In this document: positions 1-10,813 of the stretch, one piece after another
Layout of the letters: each line of letters starts with the position of its first letter
Position numbering within the stretch: the first letter of the stretch is position 1
From: a virus
UHGV virus genome: UHGV-0281911
Length of the DNA stretch: 10,813 bases
Reading direction: 5' to 3' (one strand)
Translations under genes and position numbers: made by a program
The notes under the pieces: generated by a model
Database searches by the model: none
The model's input: only the letters and a program-made list of their open reading frames with translations
Told to the model about the DNA's origin: nothing

Positions 1-79
1 CCTTTACAGCCTTCACAAGGCGATTCCACGCTTTTTCCTGTTCTGGCGTCAGGTCGATTAATTCCTGCAAAGTTGCCAT
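1..79 (-). CDS. Hypothetical phage protein, N-terminal fragment (gene runs off the window start)
   Basis: Minus-strand ATG at 79-77 opens MATLQELIDLTPEQEKAWNRLVKAVK... and continues past position 1. It starts 1 nt after the stop (83-81) of the upstream same-strand gene. Confidence 0.4.
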   Translation of the reverse strand, partial: MATLQELIDLTPEQEKAWNRLVKAVK

Positions 80-80
80 A

Positions 81-740
81 TCACTCTCCTTTGATGCGAA
101 TGCCAGCGGCGCGGATAGATTTCCATTGTTCCCACATGCGGTTGAAGTCTGTTCCTGATAAGGTCGCGTTACGGTATCCAGTTTCGGTGCGCAATCCTTC
201 AAGCGTCGATTTGGAAATACAAATTGAATGCATTACCCATGATTCAAACAAATCACGCTCCCGAGCTTCGCAACTTTGTTTACTCATCTCTTCAATGCAT
301 TGTTTAGCTTCTAAATCAGCAATTCTGTCAACTACGGCATCGACGGCATCTGAAAAGCCGAACCAGTTACTCCACTCAGGCCTATCCCCGGTTGCTGCAA
401 AGTACATATCAGCTAAAGCAGACTCAGCATGGTCACGCTCGTTGATGAGTTGCTCTTCGCTTTTCTCCAGTTCTGCTATGCGCTTTTTTGCTGCTTCCAG
501 CTCAACGCGCAGCTTCCCTACCGTTAGCGCAATATCCTCGTTCTCCTGGTCGCGGGATTTGATGTATTGCTGGTTCCTTTCCCGTTCATCCAACAATGCC
601 AGCGCGATATCTGGCGAAAAGTGCTTCATAAAATCGTTAAGCGCATTAATTCGCTGATCGAAAGGCATTACAGGTGCTTCACCAGCAATTTTTGTTTTTT
701 CAGCGATTTCACGAAGCTTTTGATAGTCAATCTTGCTCAC
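81..740 (-). CDS. Phage protein with coiled-coil character, possibly Ead/Ea22-like family
   Basis: 219-aa ORF starting MSKIDYQKLREIAEK, charged heptad-like middle section. The plus-strand ORF over the same span (73..657) is Ser-rich and low-complexity, typical of antisense. Start overlaps the stop of the 737..1174 gene by 4 nt. Family name is from memory only. Confidence 0.6.
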   Translation of the reverse strand: MSKIDYQKLREIAEKTKIAGEAPVMPFDQRINALNDFMKHFSPDIALALLDERERNQQYIKSRDQENEDIALTVGKLRVELEAAKKRIAELEKSEEQLINERDHAESALADMYFAATGDRPEWSNWFGFSDAVDAVVDRIADLEAKQCIEEMSKQSCEARERDLFESWVMHSICISKSTLEGLRTETGYRNATLSGTDFNRMWEQWKSIRAAGIRIKGE

Positions 741-1174
741 TGGCTGCCTCCTTTGCGAAGCTGGGCGGCTAACTCATCACATATGTGCGTCAAAGAACAA
801 AGTTTGATTGATGGATGTTCGCGCATCATCTCTACCCCCTGCGCCCGCACTTCAGACAGGAAAGCATCGGTGGCTGGCATATTTCCTGTTGCCTTCATTG
901 CCTCCAAAATAACCAGAACGCCATCTCGCCCAATCTCCTCGCAGATAACCTCGGTGCTGTCGCCAACAACATCGCAAAATGCCTGAACTGCTTTACGAGC
1001 CAGCGCATTCTCCGCAGCCAGCGCATTAGCACGCACCAGTTGCACTTCCAGTTGCGTTGCCAAATAGCTGATCAGCTTTGCCACACTGCGCATATCAACG
1101 GCACCACATTCTGCTTTCAGTTCCGAAGCCATCTCATGCCCGGCGGCAACTAACCCTTTGATATTACTTTCCAT
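737..1174 (-). CDS. Hypothetical phage protein
   Basis: 145-aa ORF, same strand and tightly packed with neighbours (4-nt overlap with the downstream gene). The antisense ORF 815..1153 looks like low-complexity junk. Confidence 0.65.
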   Translation of the reverse strand: MESNIKGLVAAGHEMASELKAECGAVDMRSVAKLISYLATQLEVQLVRANALAAENALARKAVQAFCDVVGDSTEVICEEIGRDGVLVILEAMKATGNMPATDAFLSEVRAQGVEMMREHPSIKLCSLTHICDELAAQLRKGGSQ

Positions 1175-1235
1175 CTTTACCCTCGCTTATCCACATAACT
1201 TATTGATTACATTGATAACTAAAAAGATCGTCGAT

Positions 1236-1580
1236 TCAGAACTCTTCGATGTTCCAGCCACCACCTGCTTTCTTTGGTTTAACCGTTACCCCGATGATTC
1301 GGAACGGATACTGATCTGCGGCGACTTTGGTTTTCACCCTGGCGTCGTCGGTCCAGAAACCTTTCACTTCGTGCAGTTCCATCTCGCCGGTGGCGAGCAT
1401 CACAGCAAAATCGGGCGTATAGAACGTGTTGTCAGCTAATCGCAGCTTGATACCCTCAAATCGATACCAGGCGATTTCCCCTGCACGTTTACGCAGCTCA
1501 AGGTGCTGGCAATACGCAGATTCTGTTTTGTTCATCTGGCCTGTTTTGAGTCGACCAAGAGCCTGTATCTGTTTTCTCAT
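1236..1580 (-). CDS. Small phage protein, possibly DUF1064-like (putative PD-(D/E)XK-fold)
   Basis: 114-aa ORF. Upstream reads AGGGGTAAATT-ATG (Shine-Dalgarno-like) and a promoter/operator module sits directly 5'. Family assignment is from memory and unverified. Confidence 0.6.
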   Translation of the reverse strand: MRKQIQALGRLKTGQMNKTESAYCQHLELRKRAGEIAWYRFEGIKLRLADNTFYTPDFAVMLATGEMELHEVKGFWTDDARVKTKVAADQYPFRIIGVTVKPKKAGGGWNIEEF

Positions 1581-1583
1581 AAT

Positions 1584-1660
1584 TTACCCCTGAGGTAATT
1601 AAAAACCACATAAGACACGAAATCAATAGAGTTTAGAATATTTTATTACCTCACAGGTAA
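1584..1660 (-). promoter_or_regulatory. Repressor-controlled promoter module: operator (1646-1660), -35 TTGATT (complement of 1621-1626), 17-bp spacer, -10 TTTAAT (complement of 1598-1603), operator (1584-1598)
   Basis: Two TTACC-N5-GGTAA palindromes (TTACCCCTGAGGTAA, TTACCTCACAGGTAA) 62 bp apart centre to centre. Operator to -35 gap is 19 bp and -35 to downstream operator gap is 22 bp, identical to the PL-like module at 4639-4715. Confidence 0.5.
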
Positions 1661-1667
1661 TTATCGA

Positions 1668-1692
1668 GACGTAAAAAAATGCGCTATCGCGC
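1668..1692 (-). terminator. Possible weak intrinsic terminator after the P-like gene
   Basis: On the minus-strand transcript, a short GCGC/GCGC stem with GAUA loop is followed by a run of seven U (plus strand aaaaaaatgcgctatcgcgc). The stem is only 4 bp, so this is tentative. Confidence 0.3.
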
Positions 1693-1697
1693 TGGTA

Positions 1698-2474
1698 TTA
1701 CTTGATAAATCCTGCCGCCTTTCCCCGCCTGTATTCCTCCATCAGCCACTGCGCCGGTGTTATTCCCCCAAGGGTGGCGGCGTTAGGCATGCACCCGAAA
1801 CTTCGCCCTGGTGGATGGTAAACGTCTCTCCCTGTGTCCGGAGGCGTACTCATGGGTTCTGGCTTTGCCTGTATGCTGATCACCGGATCGGGTATCTGCT
1901 GTCCTGAAGCCACCTTTTTCGCCCAATCATCGAGCAGCCTGCGCGCGTGTTTCTCAACCTCAATCTCGCTAAGCTGGCGCTGATACATTGCACGGCGGGT
2001 ATCACATACGACCCAGTACATAACCGGGTGCCGCCACGGGAATCTTTCGGGACCACCAGGATATAAACTTTTTTCCTTGCTGTACCGGTGAAACTCTGCC
2101 ATCACATCGTCAATGGTGACGCCAAGAACCATCTTGCTGTCTTTACACCACTTGATGAATTGCCCTGGCGACGGCCAGAACGGAGACTCACTGGCGCGGG
2201 CGTGGCGCATACCAGCGTTAACCTGTTCCATTGTAGTGATCCCATTCTCCAGAAACGCAAGCATCCATTGCTTACGGAATTCATTAAGTTTGTTCTGCTC
2301 CCTTATGGTCGAAACGCTTGCGGGAAATGCAGCCTGTAACTGGACAAATAGTTCATTGAAAATTCTAGCGACCTGCTCCTTTTTGCCATTGCTGTCACGC
2401 CGCTCTTCATGCACAGCAACACCATGCTCACGTAAGCGATCGTACTCATTGAGAAGTTCTGGAGTTGATTTCAT
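1698..2474 (-). CDS. Replication protein P-like (DnaB helicase loader)
   Basis: 258 aa. The segment QVARIFNELFVQLQAAFPAS...WMLAFLENGITTMEQVNAGMRHAR...PSPGQFIKWC closely parallels lambda P as I remember it (QVAQIINGVFSQLLATFPAS...WVLAFRENGITTMEQVNAGMRVAR...PSPGQFVAWC). Lies directly downstream of the O-like gene. Confidence 0.85.
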   Translation of the reverse strand: MKSTPELLNEYDRLREHGVAVHEERRDSNGKKEQVARIFNELFVQLQAAFPASVSTIREQNKLNEFRKQWMLAFLENGITTMEQVNAGMRHARASESPFWPSPGQFIKWCKDSKMVLGVTIDDVMAEFHRYSKEKSLYPGGPERFPWRHPVMYWVVCDTRRAMYQRQLSEIEVEKHARRLLDDWAKKVASGQQIPDPVISIQAKPEPMSTPPDTGRDVYHPPGRSFGCMPNAATLGGITPAQWLMEEYRRGKAAGFIK

Positions 2475-3270
2475 CCCACACCCCTTCTATCCAGTCAGTG
2501 TTATTCCAGTCAAGCTCATCGCTTTTCCCGGCGTTTTTTGATTTTCCCCTGATATGATTTACGTGCCTGGCGAATTTTTGTTCCCACTGAACCTGCGTGA
2601 ACACTTTGCCCTCAGCCATCCAGTAATCCCGGAATGCAGCAAGTTCAGCAGGTGTAAATTCCGGTTCCGGCAGGGCCGTTCCCCACAGCGCAGCACGCCG
2701 TCGAAAATCCGGCGACGGATGCCAGCCATCGGTCATCGGAAATTTCCCGATGGGTTCACTCAGGCCATCCAGAAATTCAGGTTCAGCCACCTGCAACGGC
2801 ATACCGTTCGCTTCACTGGTCGGAGCACCCTCGCGCACGTGCGCTATGTGTGGGGTTTTATATATATCTTCCTCTTCCTCTGGTAACTCCTTTTGTAACG
2901 CTGTTGGCGTTACTTTTTGCGTTACTCGTTTTCGATGCTCTGCCACTCTTCTATTCGTAAGTGCACGTTTTTTCGATGATTCTCCATTGTGTCGCTCAAA
3001 GTTTGGAAGAATTAGTTTGCCGTCATGATAAGCAAGCCATCCGACGCTAATGAGGGCGTCAGCAAATCCTGTAATAAAAGCGAGTCTATCAAGTACTCCT
3101 TTTGTAACGCTGCCAGCGTTACCGTCTATTGTTTGCTGGTCAGCCCATGCCCATATACGAACCAGCTTTCCAAGAACAGCATCTGGATCAATACCCAGAA
3201 TTTCTGCTATCTGAAAAATTTCAGGTTTATCAGGAGTGATAACTTCAACCTTAATCCAGCTGCTTGCCAT
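2446..3270 (-). CDS. Phage replication initiator/organizer (O-like position) with DnaT-like C-terminal domain
   Basis: C-terminal GKFPMTDGWHPSPDFRRRAALWGTALPEPEFTPAELAAFRDYWMAEGKVFTQVQWEQKFARHV resembles E. coli DnaT C-terminus ([26 protein letters not shown]...[20 protein letters not shown]). Start placed at ATG 3270 (MASSWIKV) because AAGAGGGGAAACCT precedes it; the ORF-track start at 3288 has no Shine-Dalgarno. Confidence 0.8.
   Translation of the reverse strand: MASSWIKVEVITPDKPEIFQIAEILGIDPDAVLGKLVRIWAWADQQTIDGNAGSVTKGVLDRLAFITGFADALISVGWLAYHDGKLILPNFERHNGESSKKRALTNRRVAEHRKRVTQKVTPTALQKELPEEEEDIYKTPHIAHVREGAPTSEANGMPLQVAEPEFLDGLSEPIGKFPMTDGWHPSPDFRRRAALWGTALPEPEFTPAELAAFRDYWMAEGKVFTQVQWEQKFARHVNHIRGKSKNAGKSDELDWNNTDWIEGVWDEINSRTSQ
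2887..2913. repeat. Iteron-like repeat copy 1 (CTCCTTTTGTAACGCTGTTGGCGTTAC) inside the O-like gene
   Basis: Near-identical 27-bp copy at 3096-3122. Contains inverted arms GTAACGC/GCGTTAC, with a further GCGTTAC half-site at 2919-2925. Lies in the acidic linker-coding part of the gene beside an AT-rich stretch (ttttatatatatc). Confidence 0.5.
3096..3122. repeat. Iteron-like repeat copy 2 (CTCCTTTTGTAACGCTGCCAGCGTTAC), containing a perfect 19-bp palindrome GTAACGCTGCCAGCGTTAC
   Basis: Direct repeat of 2887-2913, 209 bp away. The two copies are translated in different reading frames of the same gene (VTPTALQKE versus NAGSVTKG), so conservation is at the DNA level. Confidence 0.5.
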
Positions 3271-3463
3271 AGGTTTCCCCTCTTGCACTCTTTAGTGCAC
3301 AAGCAAATTCATTACGATGGCGGTTGGCGCTATTCATTGCACATTCAACACATGTTCCGTTCAGAACATACCTTTCAGAGAGATGGCCGTGACGGCACCG
3401 CTTTCCTGTGAAATAGCGATTTAACCCGGCTTTTGCGGCCTCCATTCTGGTTACTATCTTCAA
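3251..3463 (-). CDS. Small zinc-ribbon protein (CxxC...CxxC) at the cII-equivalent position
   Basis: 70-aa ORF with CRHGH...CVEC motifs. The candidate TTG start at 3463 is preceded by AAGAGG with an 8-nt spacer; an alternative ATG start lies at 3445. Sits between the tR1-like terminator and the O-like gene. Confidence 0.5.
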   Translation of the reverse strand: MKIVTRMEAAKAGLNRYFTGKRCRHGHLSERYVLNGTCVECAMNSANRHRNEFACALKSARGETYGKQLD

Positions 3464-3541
3464 TTTTTCCGCCTCTTTTTGTTATTGATATTGGATATTT
3501 TGCACAATTGGAAAATTTGATCAACCAGATTTGGTTTTTTA

Positions 3542-3556
3542 TTACCTTTGAGGTAC
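3542..3556. promoter_or_regulatory. Isolated operator-like palindrome TTACCTTTGAGGTAC (one half-site imperfect)
   Basis: Matches the TTACC-N5-GGTAA motif found at the immunity region. Lies immediately promoter-distal to the tR1-like hairpin. Confidence 0.3.
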
Positions 3557-3570
3557 GAATAGATATGAAA

Positions 3571-3590
3571 AGACCGCCGGGTGGCGGTCT
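3571..3590 (-). terminator. tR1-like intrinsic terminator downstream of the cro-like gene
   Basis: Inverted repeat AGACCGCC-GGGT-GGCGGTCT. On the minus-strand transcript the stem is followed by UUUUCAU. Lies 21 nt after the cro-like stop. Confidence 0.45.
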
Positions 3591-3611
3591 ACAGAGGGTT
3601 GTAGCTGGATA

Positions 3612-3842
3612 TCATGAGTAGAAGAAGTATGCCAGTTCTGCTTTTGAGCGCAGCCATTGTCTTGTTTTACAGGCTTTAAAAAGCCCATTCATCAATACTT
3701 TACCTGGCATTTTGCGCTTACCTGTTAAGTGAGTCTGGATATAGTGACTCGTCGTTCCGGCTTCCTGTGCGAAGGCTTCACGCTCATCCGGAGTAAGTGC
3801 AAGCCAGTGCTTTTTGAAATCGAAATGTCCGTTATCGCTCAT
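3612..3842 (-). CDS. Cro-like small HTH regulator
   Basis: 76-aa ORF with an HTH-like segment (LTPDEREAFAQEAGTTSHYIQTHLTGKR). Divergent from the repressor gene across an operator-rich intergenic region and followed by a terminator and replication genes, as cro is in lambda. Confidence 0.7.
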   Translation of the reverse strand: MSDNGHFDFKKHWLALTPDEREAFAQEAGTTSHYIQTHLTGKRKMPGKVLMNGLFKACKTRQWLRSKAELAYFFYS

Positions 3843-3867
3843 AGCTATTGCCTGATATTTATTTCAG

Positions 3868-3941
3868 ATAATAAATATTCACCCATAAGGTAACAAAAAT
3901 CAAGGATAGTTACCTATGAGGTGCATTTACCTGTTGGGTAA
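3868..3941. promoter_or_regulatory. OR-like region: three operator palindromes (3879-3893, 3910-3924, 3927-3941) with a PR-like promoter for cro on the minus strand; a weak PRM-like promoter for the repressor probably lies just downstream (about 3954-3982)
   Basis: Sites TCACCCATAAGGTAA, TTACCTATGAGGTGC, TTACCTGTTGGGTAA. The minus strand reads TTGTTA-17 bp-TATTAT (complement of 3891-3896 and 3868-3873), overlapping the first operator. Plus-strand candidate TTGAAT (3954-3959)-16 bp-TATGAG would give a near-leaderless repressor mRNA. Confidence 0.5.
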
Positions 3942-3996
3942 TATTGCTTTAAATTGAATCATCTACTGATTCATATATGAGGCGATTTTCCAGAAA

Positions 3997-4581
3997 ATGA
4001 AAAGTATCCAGGACGTCCGCAGGCAAAATCTCAACGACTTGATCGACCGTGAATTCAATGGTGTTCAGACGCGGATGGCAGAAAAACTTGGAACTCAGGC
4101 AAATCTGGTAAACCGCTGGGCTCTTGGCAAGAAGGTTATCGGCGACCAGGTTGCGCGAAAAATTGAAGCTGCCGCCAATAAACCCCGTAACTGGCTTGAT
4201 ATCGATCGCTCGCTTTCTCAGGAGGGGTTTCAGCCTGTCGGCCCAAGCGACATTGGTCAGCTGGCGGCTCACAACCTGGAACGCTGGATGAGCGAAAGCC
4301 GCGACCTTTCAACGCAGGGAAAACTACACCGCGCATCCGGCGTCGCCCAGGTGACAATCAGCCGCCTGTTAAACAATGAAGTCAGCGTTTCCATTTCCAC
4401 CCTGGAGAATGTTGCATCCGCATTCGGGCGTCACGGCTATGAATTACTGATTCACCCGCACGACCCTGCGACTATCAACTATGACCGCTCGCGCTACGCA
4501 TTGTTACCCGAAACAGAGAAGGCAAAGATCGAAAGTTACATTGAATTTGTCATCAGCCAGAACGAAAGAAGCAAACAATAA
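3997..4581 (+). CDS. CI-like prophage repressor with two HTH (XRE-like) domains and no recognisable S24 peptidase domain
   Basis: 194 aa. N-terminal HTH QTRMAEKLGTQANLVNRWALGKK and a second HTH-like segment ASGVAQVTISRLLNNEVSVSISTLENVASAFG. I see no Ala-Gly/Ser-Lys LexA-like cleavage module. Divergent from cro-like and followed by a strong terminator. Confidence 0.8.
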   Translation: MKSIQDVRRQNLNDLIDREFNGVQTRMAEKLGTQANLVNRWALGKKVIGDQVARKIEAAANKPRNWLDIDRSLSQEGFQPVGPSDIGQLAAHNLERWMSESRDLSTQGKLHRASGVAQVTISRLLNNEVSVSISTLENVASAFGRHGYELLIHPHDPATINYDRSRYALLPETEKAKIESYIEFVISQNERSKQ

Positions 4582-4601
4582 AACTATAGTTTTCAGTAAG
4601 T

Positions 4602-4628
4602 AAGCCGCCTCATGGCGGCTTTTTTATT
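4602..4628 (+). terminator. Rho-independent terminator after the repressor gene
   Basis: AAGCCGCC-TCAT-GGCGGCTT stem-loop followed by TTTTTATTG, 20 nt after the repressor stop codon. Confidence 0.75.
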
Positions 4629-4638
4629 GCCAACAAGA

Positions 4639-4715
4639 TTACCTTATGGGTAATTTTTTTAACTCATATCTATTGACATCAAACCAAATACGCATAATTA
4701 TTACCTCAACGGTAA
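4639..4715 (+). promoter_or_regulatory. PL-like early promoter module: operator (4639-4653), -35 TTGACA (4673-4678), -10 AATTAT (4696-4701), operator (4701-4715)
   Basis: Perfect -35 hexamer with 17-bp spacing to an A/T-rich -10, flanked by TTACCTTATGGGTAA and TTACCTCAACGGTAA, which are 62 bp apart. Drives the plus-strand recombination operon. Confidence 0.55.
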
Positions 4716-4734
4716 CAGACCGAGGTAACAAGTT

Positions 4735-4887
4735 ATGCAGTGGAAAATCATCAACGGTTGGTACTGCGTTACTGCATGCGGATTCATGAGCTGGAAGTTC
4801 CGCACCTTACAGGAAGGCATTAAGTGGGCTTTCGTCAGCAAAGAAGCTCGCGATGTGGCCAACGATAACGAGATATGGGAGGGCTGA
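4735..4887 (+). CDS. Small hypothetical protein (50 aa), first ORF of the PL-like operon; not in the supplied ORF track
   Basis: ATG at 4735 preceded by GAGGTAACAAGTT. Translates MQWKIINGWYCVTACGFMSWKFRTLQEGIKWAFVSKEARDVANDNEIWEG and ends 2 nt before the next gene. Confidence 0.4.
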   Translation: MQWKIINGWYCVTACGFMSWKFRTLQEGIKWAFVSKEARDVANDNEIWEG

Positions 4888-4889
4888 TA

Positions 4890-5189
4890 ATGAACGTTAA
4901 TCAGCAGAAAAATCTTCAAAAAATCATGCTGGCATTCGACAAGGACTACCGCCTGTCAGAACAGCTATATGACCGACAAGTTGAACTGATTGAGAGCATC
5001 CGACTTCATCAACTGTCCTCAACTTTCGACGTTGTAACAGGCAAAGGCGTTCGTCAGGAAGTGCTGGAGGCTGCTAAAGACAGCCCTGAGTTCGAAGAAC
5101 TGATGGATTCCTACCGGCGCGAGGCAATGGCAATTATAGCGCGCTGGGATCTGGCGGATCAGCTTGATGGGCAGAGGGAAGCGGCATGA
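4890..5189 (+). CDS. Hypothetical phage early protein (99 aa)
   Basis: ATG at 4890 preceded by GGGAGGG. The stop overlaps the start of the exonuclease gene (ATGA at 5186-5189), suggesting translational coupling. Confidence 0.6.
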   Translation: MNVNQQKNLQKIMLAFDKDYRLSEQLYDRQVELIESIRLHQLSSTFDVVTGKGVRQEVLEAAKDSPEFEELMDSYRREAMAIIARWDLADQLDGQREAA

Positions 5190-6007
5190 AACCGGGAATT
5201 TATTTCGACATCAGCAACGAAGACTACCACGCCGGTGACGGCGTGAGTAAGTCGCAACTGGACATGGTTGCCAAGAATCCGGCGCTTCTTAAATGGGTTC
5301 AGGCAGCACCAGAAGACGAAGAGAAAAAGTCTGCACTGGATATGGGAACCGCATTGCACTGTCTGCTTCTGGAGCCTGGAGAATTCGACAAACGCTTCAT
5401 TGTTTCACCGAAGTTCGATCGTCGGACGAAACAAGGTAAAGCTGACGAAGAAGCATTTCTTCGTGATGTAGCGGATATGGGGATTACGGTACTTGATGCC
5501 GAGCAGTGGCGGAAACTGGAGCTGATGCGTGATAGCGCAATGGCTCACCCGGCGGCACGCTGGATGCTGGAAGCACCTGGTTACTGCGAAGCATCAATGT
5601 ACTGGAACGATGAAGAGACGGGTGAGTTGTGCCGAATTCGTCCAGACAAATGGCTGAACGAGCACAACGTGATCGTCGACGTGAAAAAGGTTGCAGATAT
5701 GGACCGTTTTGCACGTCACATCGAGGAATTCCGCTACCACGTGCAGGACGCAATGTACCGCGAAGGCGCAATGAGGATTACTGGTCAGCCGCATGGTTTT
5801 TTCTTTCTTGCCGTGAGCGAAAGCATTGATTGTGGTCGGTATCCGGTACGCGTGTTCGGGCTGGATGCGCCGGATGTCGATGCCGGGCACGCTCTGTTCC
5901 GCCGGGATCTGAATACCTATCACGAATGCCGCATCAGCGATGAATGGGGCGGCGTGGAAATTATTAAACGCCCTGAGTGGGCACGCAAACAGGATATGTA
6001 CGTATGA
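5186..6007 (+). CDS. PD-(D/E)XK exonuclease, RecE (exonuclease VIII) C-terminal-domain-like
   Basis: 273 aa. Candidate catalytic motifs IRPDKW and IVDVKKV. Preceded by GAGGGAAG and translationally coupled to the downstream annealase gene (ATGA at 6004-6007). Family is from memory (DUF3799 / PDDEXK-like). Confidence 0.7.
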   Translation: MKPGIYFDISNEDYHAGDGVSKSQLDMVAKNPALLKWVQAAPEDEEKKSALDMGTALHCLLLEPGEFDKRFIVSPKFDRRTKQGKADEEAFLRDVADMGITVLDAEQWRKLELMRDSAMAHPAARWMLEAPGYCEASMYWNDEETGELCRIRPDKWLNEHNVIVDVKKVADMDRFARHIEEFRYHVQDAMYREGAMRITGQPHGFFFLAVSESIDCGRYPVRVFGLDAPDVDAGHALFRRDLNTYHECRISDEWGGVEIIKRPEWARKQDMYV

Positions 6008-6921
6008 GCAACGAAATTGCAATCACCAATGATGTGTTGGCTATTCGGGGAATCGATGAAGTTACATGGAGCGCTCTGAAAAACAGTATTTACCCTGGGG
6101 CAAAAGATGAATCGGTAATGATGGCAGTCGATTACTGCCGGGCGCGTCAACTCGATCCTCTTCTTAAGCCGGTACACCTGGTACCAATGAGTGTTAAAGA
6201 CTCGAAGAGTGGAAAGAATGAATGGCGCGACGTGGTCATGCCTGGCATTGGACTTTATCGCATTCAGGCCTACCGTTCCGGCGATTACGCAGGCGCTAAT
6301 GAACCTGAGTTCGGTCCAGATGTAACACAAACGCTTTCAGGCGTGGAGGTTACCTTCCCTCAGTGGTGTAAGTACACCGTCAGCAAGCGAATGGCAAGCG
6401 GGGAAATCGTAGAGTTTAGCGCCAAAGAATACTGGATTGAGAACTATGCAACTGGGGGGCGTGACACATCGGCACCAAATGCCATGTGGAAAAAGCGCCC
6501 TTATGCGCAGTTGGCAAAATGCGCAGAGGCACAGGCATTACGTAAAGCATGGCCGGAGATTGGTCAACAAGCCACAGCTGAGGAAATGGAAGGTAAATAT
6601 ATCGACTCACCTGACATTATTGAACGTGACGTAACTCCAAGAAGTCAGGCAAAGCACGGCACAGCATCCAGCATGAACAGTCTGATCAACGCTAAAACAG
6701 TGAAAAAGCCTGATGAGCAAACGCGTAAAGCGGATAGCCGTGATCCAGAAGAAATGCTGATGGCCTTTACCAGCGCAGCGATGAATTACAGCACTGTCTC
6801 CGAACTGGATAAGGCTTACAAATACATTGCACAAAAACTTTCAGATGATGACGAACTGCTGGCAAAAGCCACCGACGTTTACAGCGTTCGTCGGGAAGAA
6901 TTAAACGAAACATCTATGTAA
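6004..6921 (+). CDS. RecT/Red-beta (Bet) family single-strand annealing protein
   Basis: Start ATG 6004 (MSNEIAITND). Segments DYCRARQLDPLLKPVHLVPM, VMPGIGLYRIQ and AMWKKRPYAQLAKCAEAQALRKAWPE parallel lambda Bet as I remember it (QYGLNPWTKEIYAFP, VVGVDGWSRII, GPWQSHPKRMLRHKAMIQCARLAFG). Paired with an upstream exonuclease. Confidence 0.8.
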   Translation: MSNEIAITNDVLAIRGIDEVTWSALKNSIYPGAKDESVMMAVDYCRARQLDPLLKPVHLVPMSVKDSKSGKNEWRDVVMPGIGLYRIQAYRSGDYAGANEPEFGPDVTQTLSGVEVTFPQWCKYTVSKRMASGEIVEFSAKEYWIENYATGGRDTSAPNAMWKKRPYAQLAKCAEAQALRKAWPEIGQQATAEEMEGKYIDSPDIIERDVTPRSQAKHGTASSMNSLINAKTVKKPDEQTRKADSRDPEEMLMAFTSAAMNYSTVSELDKAYKYIAQKLSDDDELLAKATDVYSVRREELNETSM

Positions 6922-6970
6922 CCACCACCGCGGCGCCACGCGCGCCGCACTGCAACCAAGAGAGGTATTT

Positions 6971-7219
6971 ATGAAAGGTGCATTAGGTAAGAAGGAACTC
7001 CTGGCGGTGGTGCCACTGTCATGGAGCACTATCGACCGTATGGAGCGCGCAGGTGAATTTCCTAAACGCTGGTATATCACTGACAAACGCTGCGCATGGA
7101 ACCGTGACGAAGTTGAGCGTTGGCTTGATGAACGTCAGGCAGCAAGCCCGGCAGAGTTCCAGGGTAAAAAGCCTCCTGTTCAGCAACGTGTATATCGTCC
7201 TGTGAGCAACGCTGCATGA
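6971..7219 (+). CDS. AlpA/Xis-family DNA-binding protein (putative excisionase or regulator)
   Basis: 82 aa with SWSTIDRMERAGEFPKRWYITDKRCAWNRDEVERWLDER, typical of AlpA-type excisionase-like winged-helix proteins. Preceded by AGAGAGG. Confidence 0.7.
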   Translation: MKGALGKKELLAVVPLSWSTIDRMERAGEFPKRWYITDKRCAWNRDEVERWLDERQAASPAEFQGKKPPVQQRVYRPVSNAA

Positions 7220-7361
7220 GTGTGCTGCTAAGGCACTGGAGCAAATGGTCAGGATGGTACTTATTCCTGGCCTCTGTTTCAGCATGGCTTTATCTGCTGG
7301 CATTAATTTTCAGAGAGGGTTGGATTAAGTGAGAAAGTTAAGCCGACTTGAAAAATATCAC

Positions 7362-7628
7362 ATGAATAAGGTTTCAATGCGCAGTCCGTCAAAGATTGTC
7401 GCCGTTACTCCTGCGGCGATAGAGATCGAAAAACGCGCGATTGAAAGAGAGAAAAAAGGGCAATTCCGCATTGCCGCTCACCTTTGGCTTCAGTGTATGG
7501 ATGTTGCTTCTGGTGATGTTGAACGTGCAAGGATCGCGGTTCGCAGGGACCAATGTATCACAAAAGGTAACGGCCTTCGCCGTGGCGACTATAGCGGCAT
7601 AGGATGTTGCGGGGTGGTTTATGAATAA
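7362..7628 (+). CDS. Small protein, possibly PerC-family transcriptional regulator; start uncertain (ATG 7362 or 7377; the ORF-track start 7329 is a GTG right after an in-frame stop)
   Basis: The segment EKKGQFRIAAHLWLQCMD...ERARIAVRRDQC follows the G-x-W/F-R-x-A-A-x-x-W-L...RR..C pattern I recall for PerC/Pch proteins. No search was run. Confidence 0.45.
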   Translation: MNKVSMRSPSKIVAVTPAAIEIEKRAIEREKKGQFRIAAHLWLQCMDVASGDVERARIAVRRDQCITKGNGLRRGDYSGIGCCGVVYE

Positions 7629-7656
7629 TCAAAACAATAATGTAAAAGGTAATATC

Positions 7657-8724
7657 ATGAGCAAGGTAGGCGATTATTTCTTTGAATTTCCCGCATCACG
7701 AGGAACGCAGGGAAGCACTGTAATACTTATGATGACAGTACCAGCAAGAGCACTATCGAGAGTATTGGCAACCGACAATACGGGAAGTACCCTTGAACGT
7801 TCTCAACGTGAAATTAATCCAACCAGGGTAAAAAAGTTTTATCAATATTTAGTCAACGCTTACGAGAAAAAGGAACCATTTATTGTTCCACCATTGGTCG
7901 GAAATTGTAACTCAGAAATAGAGTTCCATGAGATTGGAAATACTAATGTCGGTTTAGCTAGATTTCCTATGGATGCAGAAATAAAATTATTTGATGGACA
8001 GCATCGTGCTGCAGGATTAGCTGAGTTCTGCCGTAATTATGGCGAAACAATTATGATTCCTCTTATGCTTACGCATAACCTTCCTTTGAAGGCGCGTCAG
8101 CAGTTCTTTTCTGACATTAATAATAATGTTTCAAAACCATCTGCAGCAATTAATATGGCGTATGACGGACGAAACGATGTTGCCCAAGAAATGGTGTCTT
8201 TCCTGTCGCAACATGACACTTTTGCAGAAGTCACTGACTTCGAGCACAACGTTGTTCCGTCAAAGTCAAACATGTGGGTGAGTTTCAAAGCATTAAGTGA
8301 TTCAACATCAAAATTTTGTATTCATAATGGGAAAAAACTAGAAATTGGTAACATCGAGTCAGTATGGGAATCATGGTTATGTCTTACACAACTAGAAGCA
8401 ATTCGCCATGGTACAAAGCAATCAGAATACAAAAGAGAATATATCCAGTTTCATGCAGTGATGATTAACGCTTTTGGCTATGCTGTTCAGCAAATGATGG
8501 TTAATCACTCAATAAAAGAAATAATTTCAATGATTGAAACATTATGTGCAAATACTGACTTCGCAGAAAGAGAGAATTTTTTCCTAATGGATAATTGGGT
8601 TGGGATCTGCACGAAAGCAAGCCAGGAAAAACTATCAGTTATTGCCAATGTAGCAGCACAGAAAGCGGCAGCAAACAGGCTGATACAAGCCTTTACCAAA
8701 GGAAGTCTGGGAGCAGAACAATGA
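7657..8724 (+). CDS. DGQHR-domain protein (DndB-like, ParB/Srx superfamily); alternative start at ATG 7621
   Basis: Exact DGQHR motif in KLFDGQHRAAGLAEF, N-terminal YFFEFPASRGTQG and a downstream FFSDINNN motif. ATG 7657 is preceded by AAAAGG with a 7-nt spacer. The stop overlaps the methyltransferase start (ATGA at 8721-8724). The gene is markedly AT-rich. Confidence 0.8.
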   Translation: MSKVGDYFFEFPASRGTQGSTVILMMTVPARALSRVLATDNTGSTLERSQREINPTRVKKFYQYLVNAYEKKEPFIVPPLVGNCNSEIEFHEIGNTNVGLARFPMDAEIKLFDGQHRAAGLAEFCRNYGETIMIPLMLTHNLPLKARQQFFSDINNNVSKPSAAINMAYDGRNDVAQEMVSFLSQHDTFAEVTDFEHNVVPSKSNMWVSFKALSDSTSKFCIHNGKKLEIGNIESVWESWLCLTQLEAIRHGTKQSEYKREYIQFHAVMINAFGYAVQQMMVNHSIKEIISMIETLCANTDFAERENFFLMDNWVGICTKASQEKLSVIANVAAQKAAANRLIQAFTKGSLGAEQ

Positions 8725-9368
8725 AAAAATACACGCTAATCTATGCAGATCCACCCTGGGTATACCGGGACAAAGCCGCAGATGGTAATCGCGGTGCCGG
8801 TTTTAAATATCCGGTTATGAGTGTGCTGGATATCTGCCGCCTTCCTGTGTGGGATTTGGCCGATGAAAACTGTCTGTTGGCCATGTGGTGGGTGCCAACA
8901 CAACCACTCGAAGCACTAAAAGTTGTTGAAGCCTGGGGATTTCGTCTGATGACCATGAAGGGCTTCACGTGGATAAAATGTGGTAGTCGACAACCAGATA
9001 AACTGGTTATGGGGATGGGACACATGACTCGCGCCAACAGTGAAGATTGCCTGTTTGCGGTAAAGGGAAAACTACCTCCGCGCATTAATGCAGGTATCGT
9101 TCAGTCATTTACCGCACCGCGGCTTGAGCATTCAAGAAAACCAGATGTCGTTCGTGAAAAACTTGTGCAATTGTTAGGCGATGTTTCTCGCATTGAACTG
9201 TTCGCCCGCCAAACGTCTCATGGCTTCGATGTTTGGGGTAATCAGTGCGAAGACCCAGCAGTGCAACTACACCCTGGATACGCGTTGTATATTGCCGGAT
9301 TAACAAATGCATTCAGCAATGCTCCGCTGTCACCAACAGACAACCAGGGGCGGGAGCGTGCAGCATGA
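8721..9368 (+). CDS. MT-A70 family N6-adenine DNA methyltransferase
   Basis: Catalytic DPPW motif near the N-terminus (MKKYTLIYADPPWVY). 215 aa. Translationally coupled to both the upstream DGQHR gene and a downstream small ORF. Confidence 0.85.
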   Translation: MKKYTLIYADPPWVYRDKAADGNRGAGFKYPVMSVLDICRLPVWDLADENCLLAMWWVPTQPLEALKVVEAWGFRLMTMKGFTWIKCGSRQPDKLVMGMGHMTRANSEDCLFAVKGKLPPRINAGIVQSFTAPRLEHSRKPDVVREKLVQLLGDVSRIELFARQTSHGFDVWGNQCEDPAVQLHPGYALYIAGLTNAFSNAPLSPTDNQGRERAA

Positions 9369-9559
9369 ACAGGGCATCACCAGCAGATTTAAGGAAATGC
9401 CTTGAAACTGCAAACATGCTTGCACACAGCGGGATCAGGTTTGTTCCAATTCCCGCTGTCACTGATGCTGAATTTGCAACACTGTCAGCAATATTCACAG
9501 ATAAAATTGAATCACTGGCAGCAGAAGCCGAGATGGAAGAAAATCAGCAGAATAATTAA
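9365..9559 (+). CDS. Small hypothetical protein (64 aa) with acidic C-terminus, last gene of the cargo operon
   Basis: ATG 9365 overlaps the methyltransferase stop (ATGA) and is preceded by GGGAG. Ends 3 nt before the convergent integrase stop codon. Confidence 0.5.
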   Translation: MNRASPADLRKCLETANMLAHSGIRFVPIPAVTDAEFATLSAIFTDKIESLAAEAEMEENQQNN

Positions 9560-9562
9560 ACG

Positions 9563-10813
9563 TTATTCCCCCGGCATCCACTTCTCAAACTTCGACGGGG
9601 AGAACGGAATCAGATCCGTATGCTCCCCGTCAATCCAGGAATCAATCATATCGGCCCACTGCTGCAACATGTAGGCGCGCTGTCTGGCGTATTCCGCTTT
9701 GTTATATACGGCGCGCACACCTTTCTGCTCATGTGCCAGAGCCTTTTCAATCCAGTCTGAAGGATAACCAGCCTCATGCAACAATGTACTGGCTGTACGG
9801 CGCATATCGTGTACGGTGAAGCCCTGAATATGCTCACCATCTTCATTTATTATTTTCACCGTTCTGTCGATCAGAGAGTTCAGCGCGGCATTAGATAATG
9901 GCTTCCGGAAATTGTAACGACCAGGAACCAGATATTCACTTCCACCAGCGCACATCTGCAATCCGACCAATATATCCTGAGCCTGTTTAGGCAGGTAAAT
10001 AACGTGCGCCCGGCTTCCCTTCATGCGGTCTGAAGGAATGGTCCATGTCCATTTTTTAAAATCTATTTCATCCCACGTTGCGTTGGTGAATTCGCCTTTA
10101 CGAACCATAGTGATAAGCACCAGCTTTAAAGCCATTTTCATAGTGCCCATAGCACCAATGGCATCCAGCGTGCGGAAGAACAGGCCAATTTCTTCTGGTG
10201 TCAGTGTTCGCTCTCTTGGTTTAAATATGGCGATAGACGAAGGTTTAATGTCAGCCGCAGGATTAAACAAACCATGACCACGGTCATTGGCGTGACGGTA
10301 TACGCTACTGATGATCTCCCTGGCCTGCACTGCTGTTGCCCGGCCACCGCGTTCGACAATCCGGTCACACAAATCACGAACCATCGATGTGGTAATTTCA
10401 GCCATCATTTTATTGCCAAGAACCGGAAGTATGTCACGGTCGATCACCGCCTGTTTCATTGCGCGGGTACTGTCAGCCAGGATGACGTGTTTCATATAAC
10501 TGTCGGTATGTACCGCAAACGTCTCGGCACCACGAATCTTTTTGATACCGTCACGTTTAGCCGCAGCCGGTGACTGGCCTGCTTTAAGCAGCTTCTTTGC
10601 AGCAATCAGTTCTTCTCGCGCTTCTGCCAGGCTGATACCGTCACGCCCATACTGCCCGATTACCAGCGTTTCGCGGCGACCGTTGATACGGTAGTCGTAG
10701 CGAAACGAGACCGTGCCTGACGTAAGCACAGCTACATACAGCCCGTCACGATCGGAGACCTTGTACAGTTTGTCCTGCGGCTTGAGGTTTTTTAATTTTG
10801 TATCGGTAAGCAC
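9563..10813 (-). CDS. int: Tyrosine site-specific integrase (P4/CP4-57-like, N-terminal arm-binding domain); 5' end at or just beyond the window edge
   Basis: N-terminus LTDTKLKNLKPQDKLYKVSDRDGLYVAVL is typical of this integrase class. C-terminal HDMRRT box and downstream Tyr (AVYNKAEY). The first in-window codon is GTG, so 1-3 codons may be missing. Confidence 0.9.
   Translation of the reverse strand: MLTDTKLKNLKPQDKLYKVSDRDGLYVAVLTSGTVSFRYDYRINGRRETLVIGQYGRDGISLAEAREELIAAKKLLKAGQSPAAAKRDGIKKIRGAETFAVHTDSYMKHVILADSTRAMKQAVIDRDILPVLGNKMMAEITTSMVRDLCDRIVERGGRATAVQAREIISSVYRHANDRGHGLFNPAADIKPSSIAIFKPRERTLTPEEIGLFFRTLDAIGAMGTMKMALKLVLITMVRKGEFTNATWDEIDFKKWTWTIPSDRMKGSRAHVIYLPKQAQDILVGLQMCAGGSEYLVPGRYNFRKPLSNAALNSLIDRTVKIINEDGEHIQGFTVHDMRRTASTLLHEAGYPSDWIEKALAHEQKGVRAVYNKAEYARQRAYMLQQWADMIDSWIDGEHTDLIPFSPSKFEKWMPGE

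Follow-up and report, generated by a model that had tools for sequence, protein, structure and literature searches.

We describe a gene pair in the viral genome UHGV-0281911 (10,813 nucleotides, referred to below as the window), in which a gene for a DGQHR/DndB-family protein is followed directly by a gene for an MT-A70 adenine methyltransferase, and then by a small DUF1382 gene. Methylases of several unrelated families are enriched directly downstream of DGQHR genes, and this association is more than chance, but facultative. The reading that we favor, with a probability of about 0.4, is an early-operon self-modification cassette, in which the DGQHR protein would be a DndB/DpdB-like helper or modulator of the adjacent enzyme. 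The genes and motifs concerned are listed below, where A2 is an alignment of 47 sequences of DGQHR homologues and A1 a further alignment.

Positions 7628–8723, + strand: 1.1-kb present/absent cassette with the DGQHR gene and ATGA at both ends (GC content 39%, versus 48–50% in the flanks; blastn against phiV10).
Positions 7657–8724 (alternative start 7621), + strand: DGQHR/DndB-family protein of 355 aa, with an N-terminal ParB/Srx NTPase fold and a helical C-terminal domain.
Positions 7798–7812, + strand: RSQRE codons (QR pair of the DGQHR domain; no variation in A1 or A2).
Positions 7993–8007, + strand: DGQHR codons, a predicted NTP phosphate-binding motif comparable to GxxR of ParB (sequence and alignments; role from PMC10164549, PMC4619093).
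Positions 8107–8121, + strand: FSDIN codons (FxxxN motif of the DGQHR domain; no variation in A1 or A2).
Positions 8721–9368, + strand: MT-A70 (beta-class) N6-adenine methyltransferase of 215 aa, with DPPW at 8748–8759 (PF05063, 5.7e-22; PADLOC MTase_II, 2e-76; phrog_359).
Positions 9365–9559, + strand: DUF1382 small protein (PF07131, 1.4e-30; 106 bits, cut-off 27).

The exact DGQHR and DPPW motifs, as well as the ATGA overlaps at 8721–8724 (DGQHR/methylase) and 9365–9368 (methylase/DUF1382), were reported in an initial annotation of the window and are all present in the sequence. DGQHR and the methylase are separate open reading frames (ORFs) in different frames. The initial annotation began the first gene at 7621; the gene itself stands, but its start is more likely at 7657, as in the PGAP annotation, since homologues start with MSKVG and an AAAGG lies 7 nt upstream. 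The PHROG profile match begins at residue 13 of the version starting at 7621, in line with the start at 7657. In phiV10, this same ATG at 7621 serves as the start codon of the methylase gene.

The association was assessed in 198 loci with DGQHR homologues, drawn from IMG/VR and GTDB species genomes, by walking the genes downstream of DGQHR. Pfam confirmed representatives of these genes, and densities were calculated with equal weight for each of 48 clusters at 90% identity. A methylase is the first or second same-strand gene downstream of DGQHR in 14–17 of the 48 clusters (∼30% of lineages). These methylases belong to five unrelated families: MT-A70 (PF05063), phage Dam (PF05869), D12 Dam (PF02086), N6_N4 (PF01555) and C5 (PF00145). 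Methylase starts have a density of 0.317/kb in the 950 nt after the DGQHR stop versus 0.035/kb elsewhere in the same 10-kb loci, which corresponds to 14.6 observed starts just downstream versus 1.6 expected (∼nine-fold, Poisson p∼2e-9). The link recurs in DGQHR lineages that are 30–39% identical (Vibrio, Rheinheimera, and Shewanella-like hosts), and one DGQHR cluster at 95% identity is combined with three different methylase families. The initial annotation had asked for the conservation of the pair across genomes, and the answer is a partial one: the enrichment is clear, yet the pairing is optional. Its remark that the pairing is not a named system holds, as our literature search found no paper on the DGQHR-methylase association; the search also found no functional study on the phage and plasmid clade of orphan DndB-like proteins.

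Where the methylase is the second gene, the intervening gene encodes either a 154-aa protein without a Pfam match or a 179-aa protein with multiple helix-turn-helix (HTH) motifs. The largest enterobacterial clade of DGQHR always has a small gene between DGQHR and the methylase (positions 6065–6529 in locus L080; 6046–6585 in locus L118, from IMG/VR). The 179-aa multi-HTH protein has weak matches to GcrA and to sigma-70 region 4, and the methylase behind the small gene is of the PF05869, MT-A70 or N6_N4 type. Other genes found downstream of DGQHR encode a dATP/dGTP pyrophosphohydrolase, RdgC, an HNH protein, and PsiA.

The cassette is polymorphic within its own prophage family. The stop codon of PerC overlaps the start of the methylase gene in phiV10 (TTTATGACTAAG); precisely between these two points the window has 1,096 bp (7628–8723), a cassette closing with an ATGA of its own. 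A blastn comparison of the window with phiV10 gives matches of 98–99% at 6901–7628 and 8724–9600, with no match between. The 1.9-kb region is matched by 542 E. coli chromosome or plasmid records, 21 of which cover at least 80% of it, including the DGQHR part; the DGQHR cassette is found in only 21 of the 5,426 E. coli genomes surveyed. About 500 E. coli genomes contain the same prophage family without DGQHR, mostly with PerC abutting the methylase at the guaA site, and the typical order in this form is PerC, MT-A70, DUF1382 or a Ser/Thr phosphatase, and int. About one in ten complete E. coli genomes has the methylase. The Salmonella phage SPN1S has kept the PerC-(DUF1317)-DGQHR-methylase block, with 78, 76, and 74% nucleotide identity to the E. 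coli block; the three genes have co-diverged, which makes the pair an old one among these phages, and the phiV10 form may have arisen by deletion. DUF1382 is present without DGQHR in phiV10 and, 3′ of the methylase, in the Stx2a phage PA8. The slot between methylase and int contains either DUF1382 (window 9365–9559) or a 219-aa Ser/Thr phosphatase (4139–4798 in locus L211) in prophages at guaA that are otherwise near-identical. DUF1382 is a generic gene of the accessory region, and is not specific to the DGQHR-methylase pair.

The domain assignments of the initial annotation, DGQHR/DndB and MT-A70, are borne out by profile scores above the respective cut-offs. The DGQHR protein scores 158.3 bits (3.5e-46; cut-off 29.1) against Pfam DndB (PF14072) and 192.4 bits (1.2e-56; cut-off 58.85) against the DGQHR domain TIGR03187, and it also matches PADLOC DndB (2.3e-37) and phrog_7901 (1.9e-226). 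After the generic domain, the closest curated model is the DndB equivalog TIGR03233, with a score of 110 bits (1.3e-31) that does not reach the cut-off of 328; none of the NCBIfam models other than DGQHR and DndB matched. Within the DGQHR motif, A2 shows no variation in D, G, Q, and R and very little in H, and all five residues are invariant in A1. The N-terminal domain adopts the ParB/Srx fold, as judged from the predicted structure and 47 homologues. No DUF1524, HNH or other nuclease domain was recognized in the protein by profile searches, no HTH was detected in it, and a search of PDB sequences with the DGQHR profile gave nothing significant. Among the 120 homologues listed, no fusion of PF14072 to a methylase is found; all contain PF14072 alone.

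Tandem pairs of different DGQHR-family genes are seen in a Rheinheimera locus (L033, 3852–6326) and in a Dehalococcoidia locus (L045, 3822–6122). In Pseudoalteromonas phage KB12-38 (L006, 935–5553), a DndB-like gene is clustered with a PAPS-reductase-like gene and a C5 methylase, which may represent a different phage DNA-modification module. The anti-Dnd protein JSS1_004 was considered as a phage mimic of DndB and was rejected, as it is a kinase/shutoff protein.

The methylase scores 78.9 bits against PF05063 (cut-off 23.9), with DPPW at residues 10–13, and its sequence matches solved MT-A70 and METTL3 structures. It is 97–98% identical to the phiV10 enzyme, including the C-terminus, with or without DGQHR. 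Over residues 2–191, it is 81% identical to M.EcoPA8orf6770P of the Stx2a phage PA8, and the tail differs after residue ∼191; in the PA8 enzyme, the C-terminal tail is proposed to bind PNB-2, a 143-aa winged-helix protein encoded by the upstream ATGA-coupled gene. PNB-2 and the PA8 enzyme form a 1:1 complex that prefers 16S rRNA (PMC10810198). M.EcoGV, which is highly similar to the PA8 enzyme (PMC10810198), is listed as GATC-specific in REBASE-based tables (PMC6602927). The window methylase is also 40% identical to phiBZS1_p32 of Serratia phage BZS1, an MT-A70 enzyme for which GATC methylation was tested directly (PMC7556043). M.EfaBMDam is, like M.EcoGV and phiBZS1_p32, a Dam-like member of the prokaryotic MT-A70 (beta-class) DNA methyltransferases. 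By homology, the methylase is most likely a Dam-like orphan enzyme producing N6-methyladenine (m6A) at GATC. The enzyme and its orphan status are already known. The initial annotation had held, among other conditions, that its proposal would fall if the methylase were an orphan Dam-like enzyme and the two genes were not co-conserved. About half of this applies: the former is the case by homology, and co-conservation is only partial, although methylases show the ∼nine-fold enrichment just 3′ of DGQHR. The non-specific methylases Hia5 and Hin1523 were considered as relatives and rejected, being Dam-related and not MT-A70 enzymes. GATC is mildly under-represented in the window (1–10813) and in the prophage (L001, 1–23193), with an observed/expected ratio of 0.65–0.71, but not in the corresponding phiV10 segment (0.98); these counts are uninformative.

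Genes upstream of other MT-A70 genes encode PerC/ANR regulators, PNB-2-like proteins, and multi-HTH proteins. A PerC/ANR gene lies directly 5′ of the MT-A70 gene both in phiV10-like prophages, where the two overlap, and in Serratia phage BZS1, where they are 3 nt apart (L002, 4034–4943; L209, 2310–3157; window, 7329–7628 and 8721–9368). PerC/ANR and MT-A70 may thus be a conserved pair in its own right.

The self-modification reading can be outlined as follows. A temperate phiV10/epsilon15-like phage would carry an optional cassette at the distal end of its early operon, and the methylase encoded there would add m6A to GATC sites of the phage DNA, either in lytic growth or in establishment. The DGQHR protein would be a non-nuclease member of the DndB/DpdB branch of ParB/Srx NTPases that binds NTP and dimerizes on DNA, and it would help or tune whichever DNA-modifying enzyme its neighbor gene encodes. 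DGQHR and methylase together would correspond, in split form, to the ParB-methylase fusions that prophages commonly encode, and the benefit to the phage would be protection of its own DNA and escape from restriction. The phage self-protection or anti-restriction module considered in the initial annotation is, in this form, plausible. Precedents exist among characterized relatives. The ATPase function of DpdB is needed for DpdA to insert preQ0 into double-stranded DNA, without a stable complex between them (PMC10164549). DndB controls dndCDE (PMC4507180), a DndB-like protein binds ATP and GTP (PMC12704722), and ParB-fold-methylase fusions are enriched in prophages (PMC12704722). A helper or tuner of the neighboring enzyme fits best because of the position-specific enrichment of methylases, the DpdB precedent, and these prophage fusions. 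An extended version appears unlikely to us: orphan DndB-like proteins in general would be widespread early factors of temperate phages and conjugative plasmids, acting as NTP-gated DNA clamps or loaders that speed or direct protective methylation by the adjacent methylase, or else by host Dam. If true, they would amount to a new kind of anti-restriction accessory, one in which the parts of the ParB-methylase fusions are split and exchangeable.

Homologues of the DGQHR protein are also widespread on plasmids. A tblastn search identified them, mostly at ∼43% identity, in 1,056 plasmid records, 879 of which are conjugative. An IncL/M plasmid (L205) has an intact DGQHR gene, with RadC-JAB and an HTH gene on one side and DUF4942 on the other; Hha, an antirestriction gene, and ssb come next. 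In a MOBF plasmid, the homologue is near an antirestriction gene. No recognized methylase adjoins the DGQHR copies in these two plasmids examined; DUF4942 was considered as a hidden methylase, which was unsupported by Pfam, NCBIfam, and PDB sequence searches. In chromosomal or contig loci of Buttiauxella and Dryocola (L023–L026), a more distant DGQHR homologue of 435 aa (stop near 6308) overlaps the downstream psiA (Pfam PsiA, 3.7e-38). The location of the plasmid homologues among antirestriction genes, in one case beside ssb, suggests a role during establishment. For such regions, the label 'leading-region anti-defence islands' was reportedly used by Samuel and Burstein in Nature in 2024. In many plasmids of ∼63.6 kb (H164–H173), which we take to be the size of pOXA-48, the DGQHR gene is interrupted by IS1B, providing a natural knockout.

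A prophage integrated beside guaA in E. coli APEC E19035 matches the window with 100% identity; by gene order and identity, it groups with phiV10, epsilon15, and SPN1S (genus Uetakevirus). The cargo position given in the initial annotation, between the PerC-like gene and the integrase, was confirmed. Its statement that no other dnd/dpd-like gene is present in the window also holds: no dndC, dndD or dndE gene is found there, and none of the dnd/dpd type is annotated within 42 kb of the identical APEC E19035 locus. Likewise, no TGT-like gene (DpdA transglycosylase) is annotated in the window or in the APEC E19035 locus. The rightward operon (∼4875–9559) lies 3′ of a repressor gene (3997–4581) and contains, in order, two small ORFs, a PD-(D/E)XK exonuclease, Bet/RecT, an AlpA/Xis-like gene, PerC, DGQHR, MT-A70, and DUF1382; the integrase gene is convergent with it. 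The remaining features of this region are as follows.

Positions 4602–4621, + strand: terminator-like hairpin after the repressor gene (pattern scan; the phiV10 annotation has a terminator at the equivalent place).
Positions 4673–4701, + strand: putative sigma-70-like promoter, the single match upstream of the rightward operon (TTGACA-17-AATTAT; consensus match only).
Positions 6971–7219, + strand: AlpA/Xis-like regulator (Pfam Phage_AlpA, 3e-5; PGAP annotation).
Positions 7329–7628, + strand: PerC/ANR-family regulator (Pfam PerC, 6e-7; phrog_868, 1.6e-61).
Positions 9563–10813, − strand: P4-type tyrosine integrase with attachment beside guaA (Pfam Arm-DNA-bind_3, Phage_int_M, and Phage_integrase; genome context).

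A pattern scan found no + strand terminator-like site between the promoter-like site at 4673–4701 and 9559. Since there is one promoter-like site and no such terminator before 9559, DGQHR, the methylase, and DUF1382 look like the distal part of an early recombination/excision (xis) operon, as far as a consensus scan indicates. The spacer from the PerC stop to the DGQHR start is 28 nt and holds no separate promoter region; in lambdoid prophages, an upstream DUF1317 gene overlaps the start of the DGQHR gene. The recombination genes of the operon vary in arrangement within the group. The exonuclease and RecT/Bet are two overlapping ORFs in the window (5186–6921), RecE-RecT is annotated as one fused ORF in phiV10 (L002, 1833–3593), and an inserted HNH endonuclease gene separates the exonuclease from RecT/Bet in SPN1S (L003, 1040–3146).

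Several observations weigh against a protein dedicated to the neighboring methylase. In roughly two thirds of DGQHR lineages, a methylase is neither the first nor the second gene downstream. The commonest form in E. coli, a 74%-identical DGQHR gene found in 284 of the 5,426 genomes, has no methylase annotated in 41 kb; it belongs to a lambdoid prophage with the order exo-DUF1317-DGQHR-TraR-DUF4222-int. Approximately 96% of E. coli prophages of the window's own family are without DGQHR, so that the methylase evidently works alone, and its sequence shows no adaptation to the presence of DGQHR. Expression timing is read from the consensus scan. The ATGA overlaps are uninformative, since neighboring genes in these loci often overlap in this way, whatever they encode; the three coupled genes of the initial annotation do overlap, but they are not a fixed unit, as the third slot is variable as well. 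Moreover, part of the enrichment could be a slot effect, because DGQHR genes and methylases occupy the same int-proximal accessory slot. The main alternative, somewhat less likely than the self-modification reading, is that the two genes function independently, with the DGQHR protein as a stand-alone establishment or anti-defense factor, acting for example on incoming DNA or on host modification-based immunity, and with the methylases as anti-restriction devices themselves, sharing a slot without mechanistic coupling. Such independence is supported by the solo DGQHR genes in the 284 genomes, by methylases that are mostly solo and whose families are swapped freely behind near-identical DGQHR genes, and by the 1,056 plasmid records, where the contexts examined hold antirestriction genes, ssb, and psiA and no recognized adjacent methylase. 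However, methylases occur far more often directly downstream of DGQHR than upstream or elsewhere in the same regions (14.6 versus 1.6 expected), the enrichment spans DGQHR lineages of 30–40% identity and non-homologous methylases, and ParB-fold-methylase fusions exist (PMC12704722).

The other alternatives assign the DGQHR protein a more specific activity. That DndB is its closest curated model after the generic domain (TIGR03233, 1.3e-31), that DndB represses dndBCDE as the first gene of this operon (PMC4507180), and that DGQHR before a modification gene mirrors dndB before dndC could point to a DndB-like transcription factor, an NTP-modulated repressor of the downstream methylase or of other prophage genes. 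We consider this quite unlikely: the score of 110 bits is far from the equivalog cut-off of 328, no HTH was detected, and the model is weakened because the gene, 28 nt after the PerC stop and deep inside a long operon, lacks its own promoter region. DndB proper autoregulates through palindromic operators in its own promoter, and the 28-nt spacer after PerC argues against such a feature here. The compact restriction-like or modification-sensing system proposed in the initial annotation, with DGQHR as nuclease or effector and the methylase protecting self DNA, fares worse and seems very unlikely. The superfamily relatives SspE and GmrSD/BrxU are NTPase-nucleases (PMC4619093, PMC10164549), the PADLOC DndB and MTase_II models both match, and the enterobacterial clade keeps an R/K-x5-H stretch (residues 260–266) that could be a candidate HEPN-like motif. 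Nevertheless, this model is poorly supported because no nuclease domain (DUF1524, HNH or other) was found, the genes are often separate, methylases are exchanged, and the cassette closes an early lytic operon. Hundreds of genomes, and plasmids as well, tolerate DGQHR with no methylase linked to it, the methylase is an orphan in ∼500 genomes and remains 97–98% identical either way, and the different methylase families behind near-identical DGQHR genes are unlike a matched specificity. Its place at the end of that operon suggests that the cassette is expressed once the phage is induced and not in the lysogen, and the host itself already methylates GATC. It is also highly improbable that DGQHR is a PNB-2-like specificity subunit, redirecting the MT-A70 enzyme from DNA to RNA such as 16S rRNA. 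This idea draws on the orthology of the methylase (81%) to M.EcoPA8orf6770P, which pairs 1:1 with its upstream gene product (PMC10810198), and on the varied nucleic-acid-binding proteins (PNB-2-like, PerC/ANR, multi-HTH) in the slot upstream of MT-A70 genes. It fails because DGQHR has no homology to PNB-2 (no phmmer match; different Pfam profile) and because its partner methylases are so varied, being equally often of non-MT-A70 types, including C5; in addition, the tail proposed to bind PNB-2 differs after residue ∼191, and the cited ParB-fold relatives act on DNA or nucleotides. A hidden relationship of PNB-2 to DGQHR, or to the small HTH genes that separate DGQHR from methylases, was also considered and rejected, as phmmer again gave no match.

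The DGQHR clade is a large group of DndB-like ParB-fold proteins outside dnd/dpd clusters, present in temperate phages and in more than 1,000 plasmid records, with carriers that include an IncL/M plasmid and plasmids of pOXA-48 size. The enrichment of five methylase families downstream provides a testable hypothesis for the function of these proteins, in which a ParB-like NTPase working with a DNA-modifying enzyme, the theme of DndB and DpdB, would also serve ordinary methylation. If correct, it would be relevant to the evasion of restriction by mobile elements that are becoming established, and to the ParB-methylase fusions, which are unexplained. Should it prove false, the DGQHR family would still be a candidate establishment or anti-defense factor of clinically important plasmids.

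The DGQHR protein shares with DndB of dndBCDE the PF14072 family, the QR, DGQHR, and FxxxN motifs, and the position upstream of a DNA-modifying gene, and DndB exerts NTP-responsive control over the extent of DNA modification (PMC4507180, PMC12704722). Unlike DndB, the DGQHR protein scores below the equivalog cut-off, occurs without dndCDE or dndFGH, has a methyltransferase as partner, lacks its own promoter/operator region, and is phage-borne. DpdB is likewise a ParB-like NTPase; its motif reads DGQQR, its C-terminal domain is helical and has no nuclease, and its gene adjoins that of a base-modifying enzyme that requires it for activity on double-stranded DNA (PMC10164549); PadC is the top structural neighbor of both DpdB and the DGQHR protein. 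The partner in the DpdB-DpdA system is a transglycosylase, whereas here it is a SAM methyltransferase, which functions without DGQHR in most of its relatives.

M.EcoPA8orf6770P-PNB-2 and M.EcoGV offer an orthologous MT-A70 enzyme in the same int-proximal place, with upstream ATGA coupling and DUF1382 downstream, but the upstream winged-helix PNB-2 is unrelated to DGQHR and the C-terminal tail of the methylase differs. The ParB-fold-methyltransferase fusions combine a ParB/Srx fold with N6_N4 or Methyltransf_23 domains (MT-A70 in archaea), are enriched in prophages, and are suspected of an anti-defense role (PMC12704722, PMC4738411); in contrast, the window has separate genes, a member of the DndB subfamily and not of ParBc, and an optional combination. 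Type II restriction-modification differs by its cognate endonuclease, as here there is no nuclease domain and each gene is often alone, and SspE and GmrSD/BrxU (DUF262 plus DUF1524) differ by the C-terminal HNH-like DUF1524 nuclease, which the DGQHR protein lacks. Finally, the antirestriction and leading-region gene sets of conjugative plasmids (ardA/klcA, ssb, psiB/psiA, and orphan methylases) are comparable in that the ∼43%-identical DGQHR homologues lie among antirestriction genes of an IncL/M and a MOBF plasmid; the element in the window, in contrast, is a phage.

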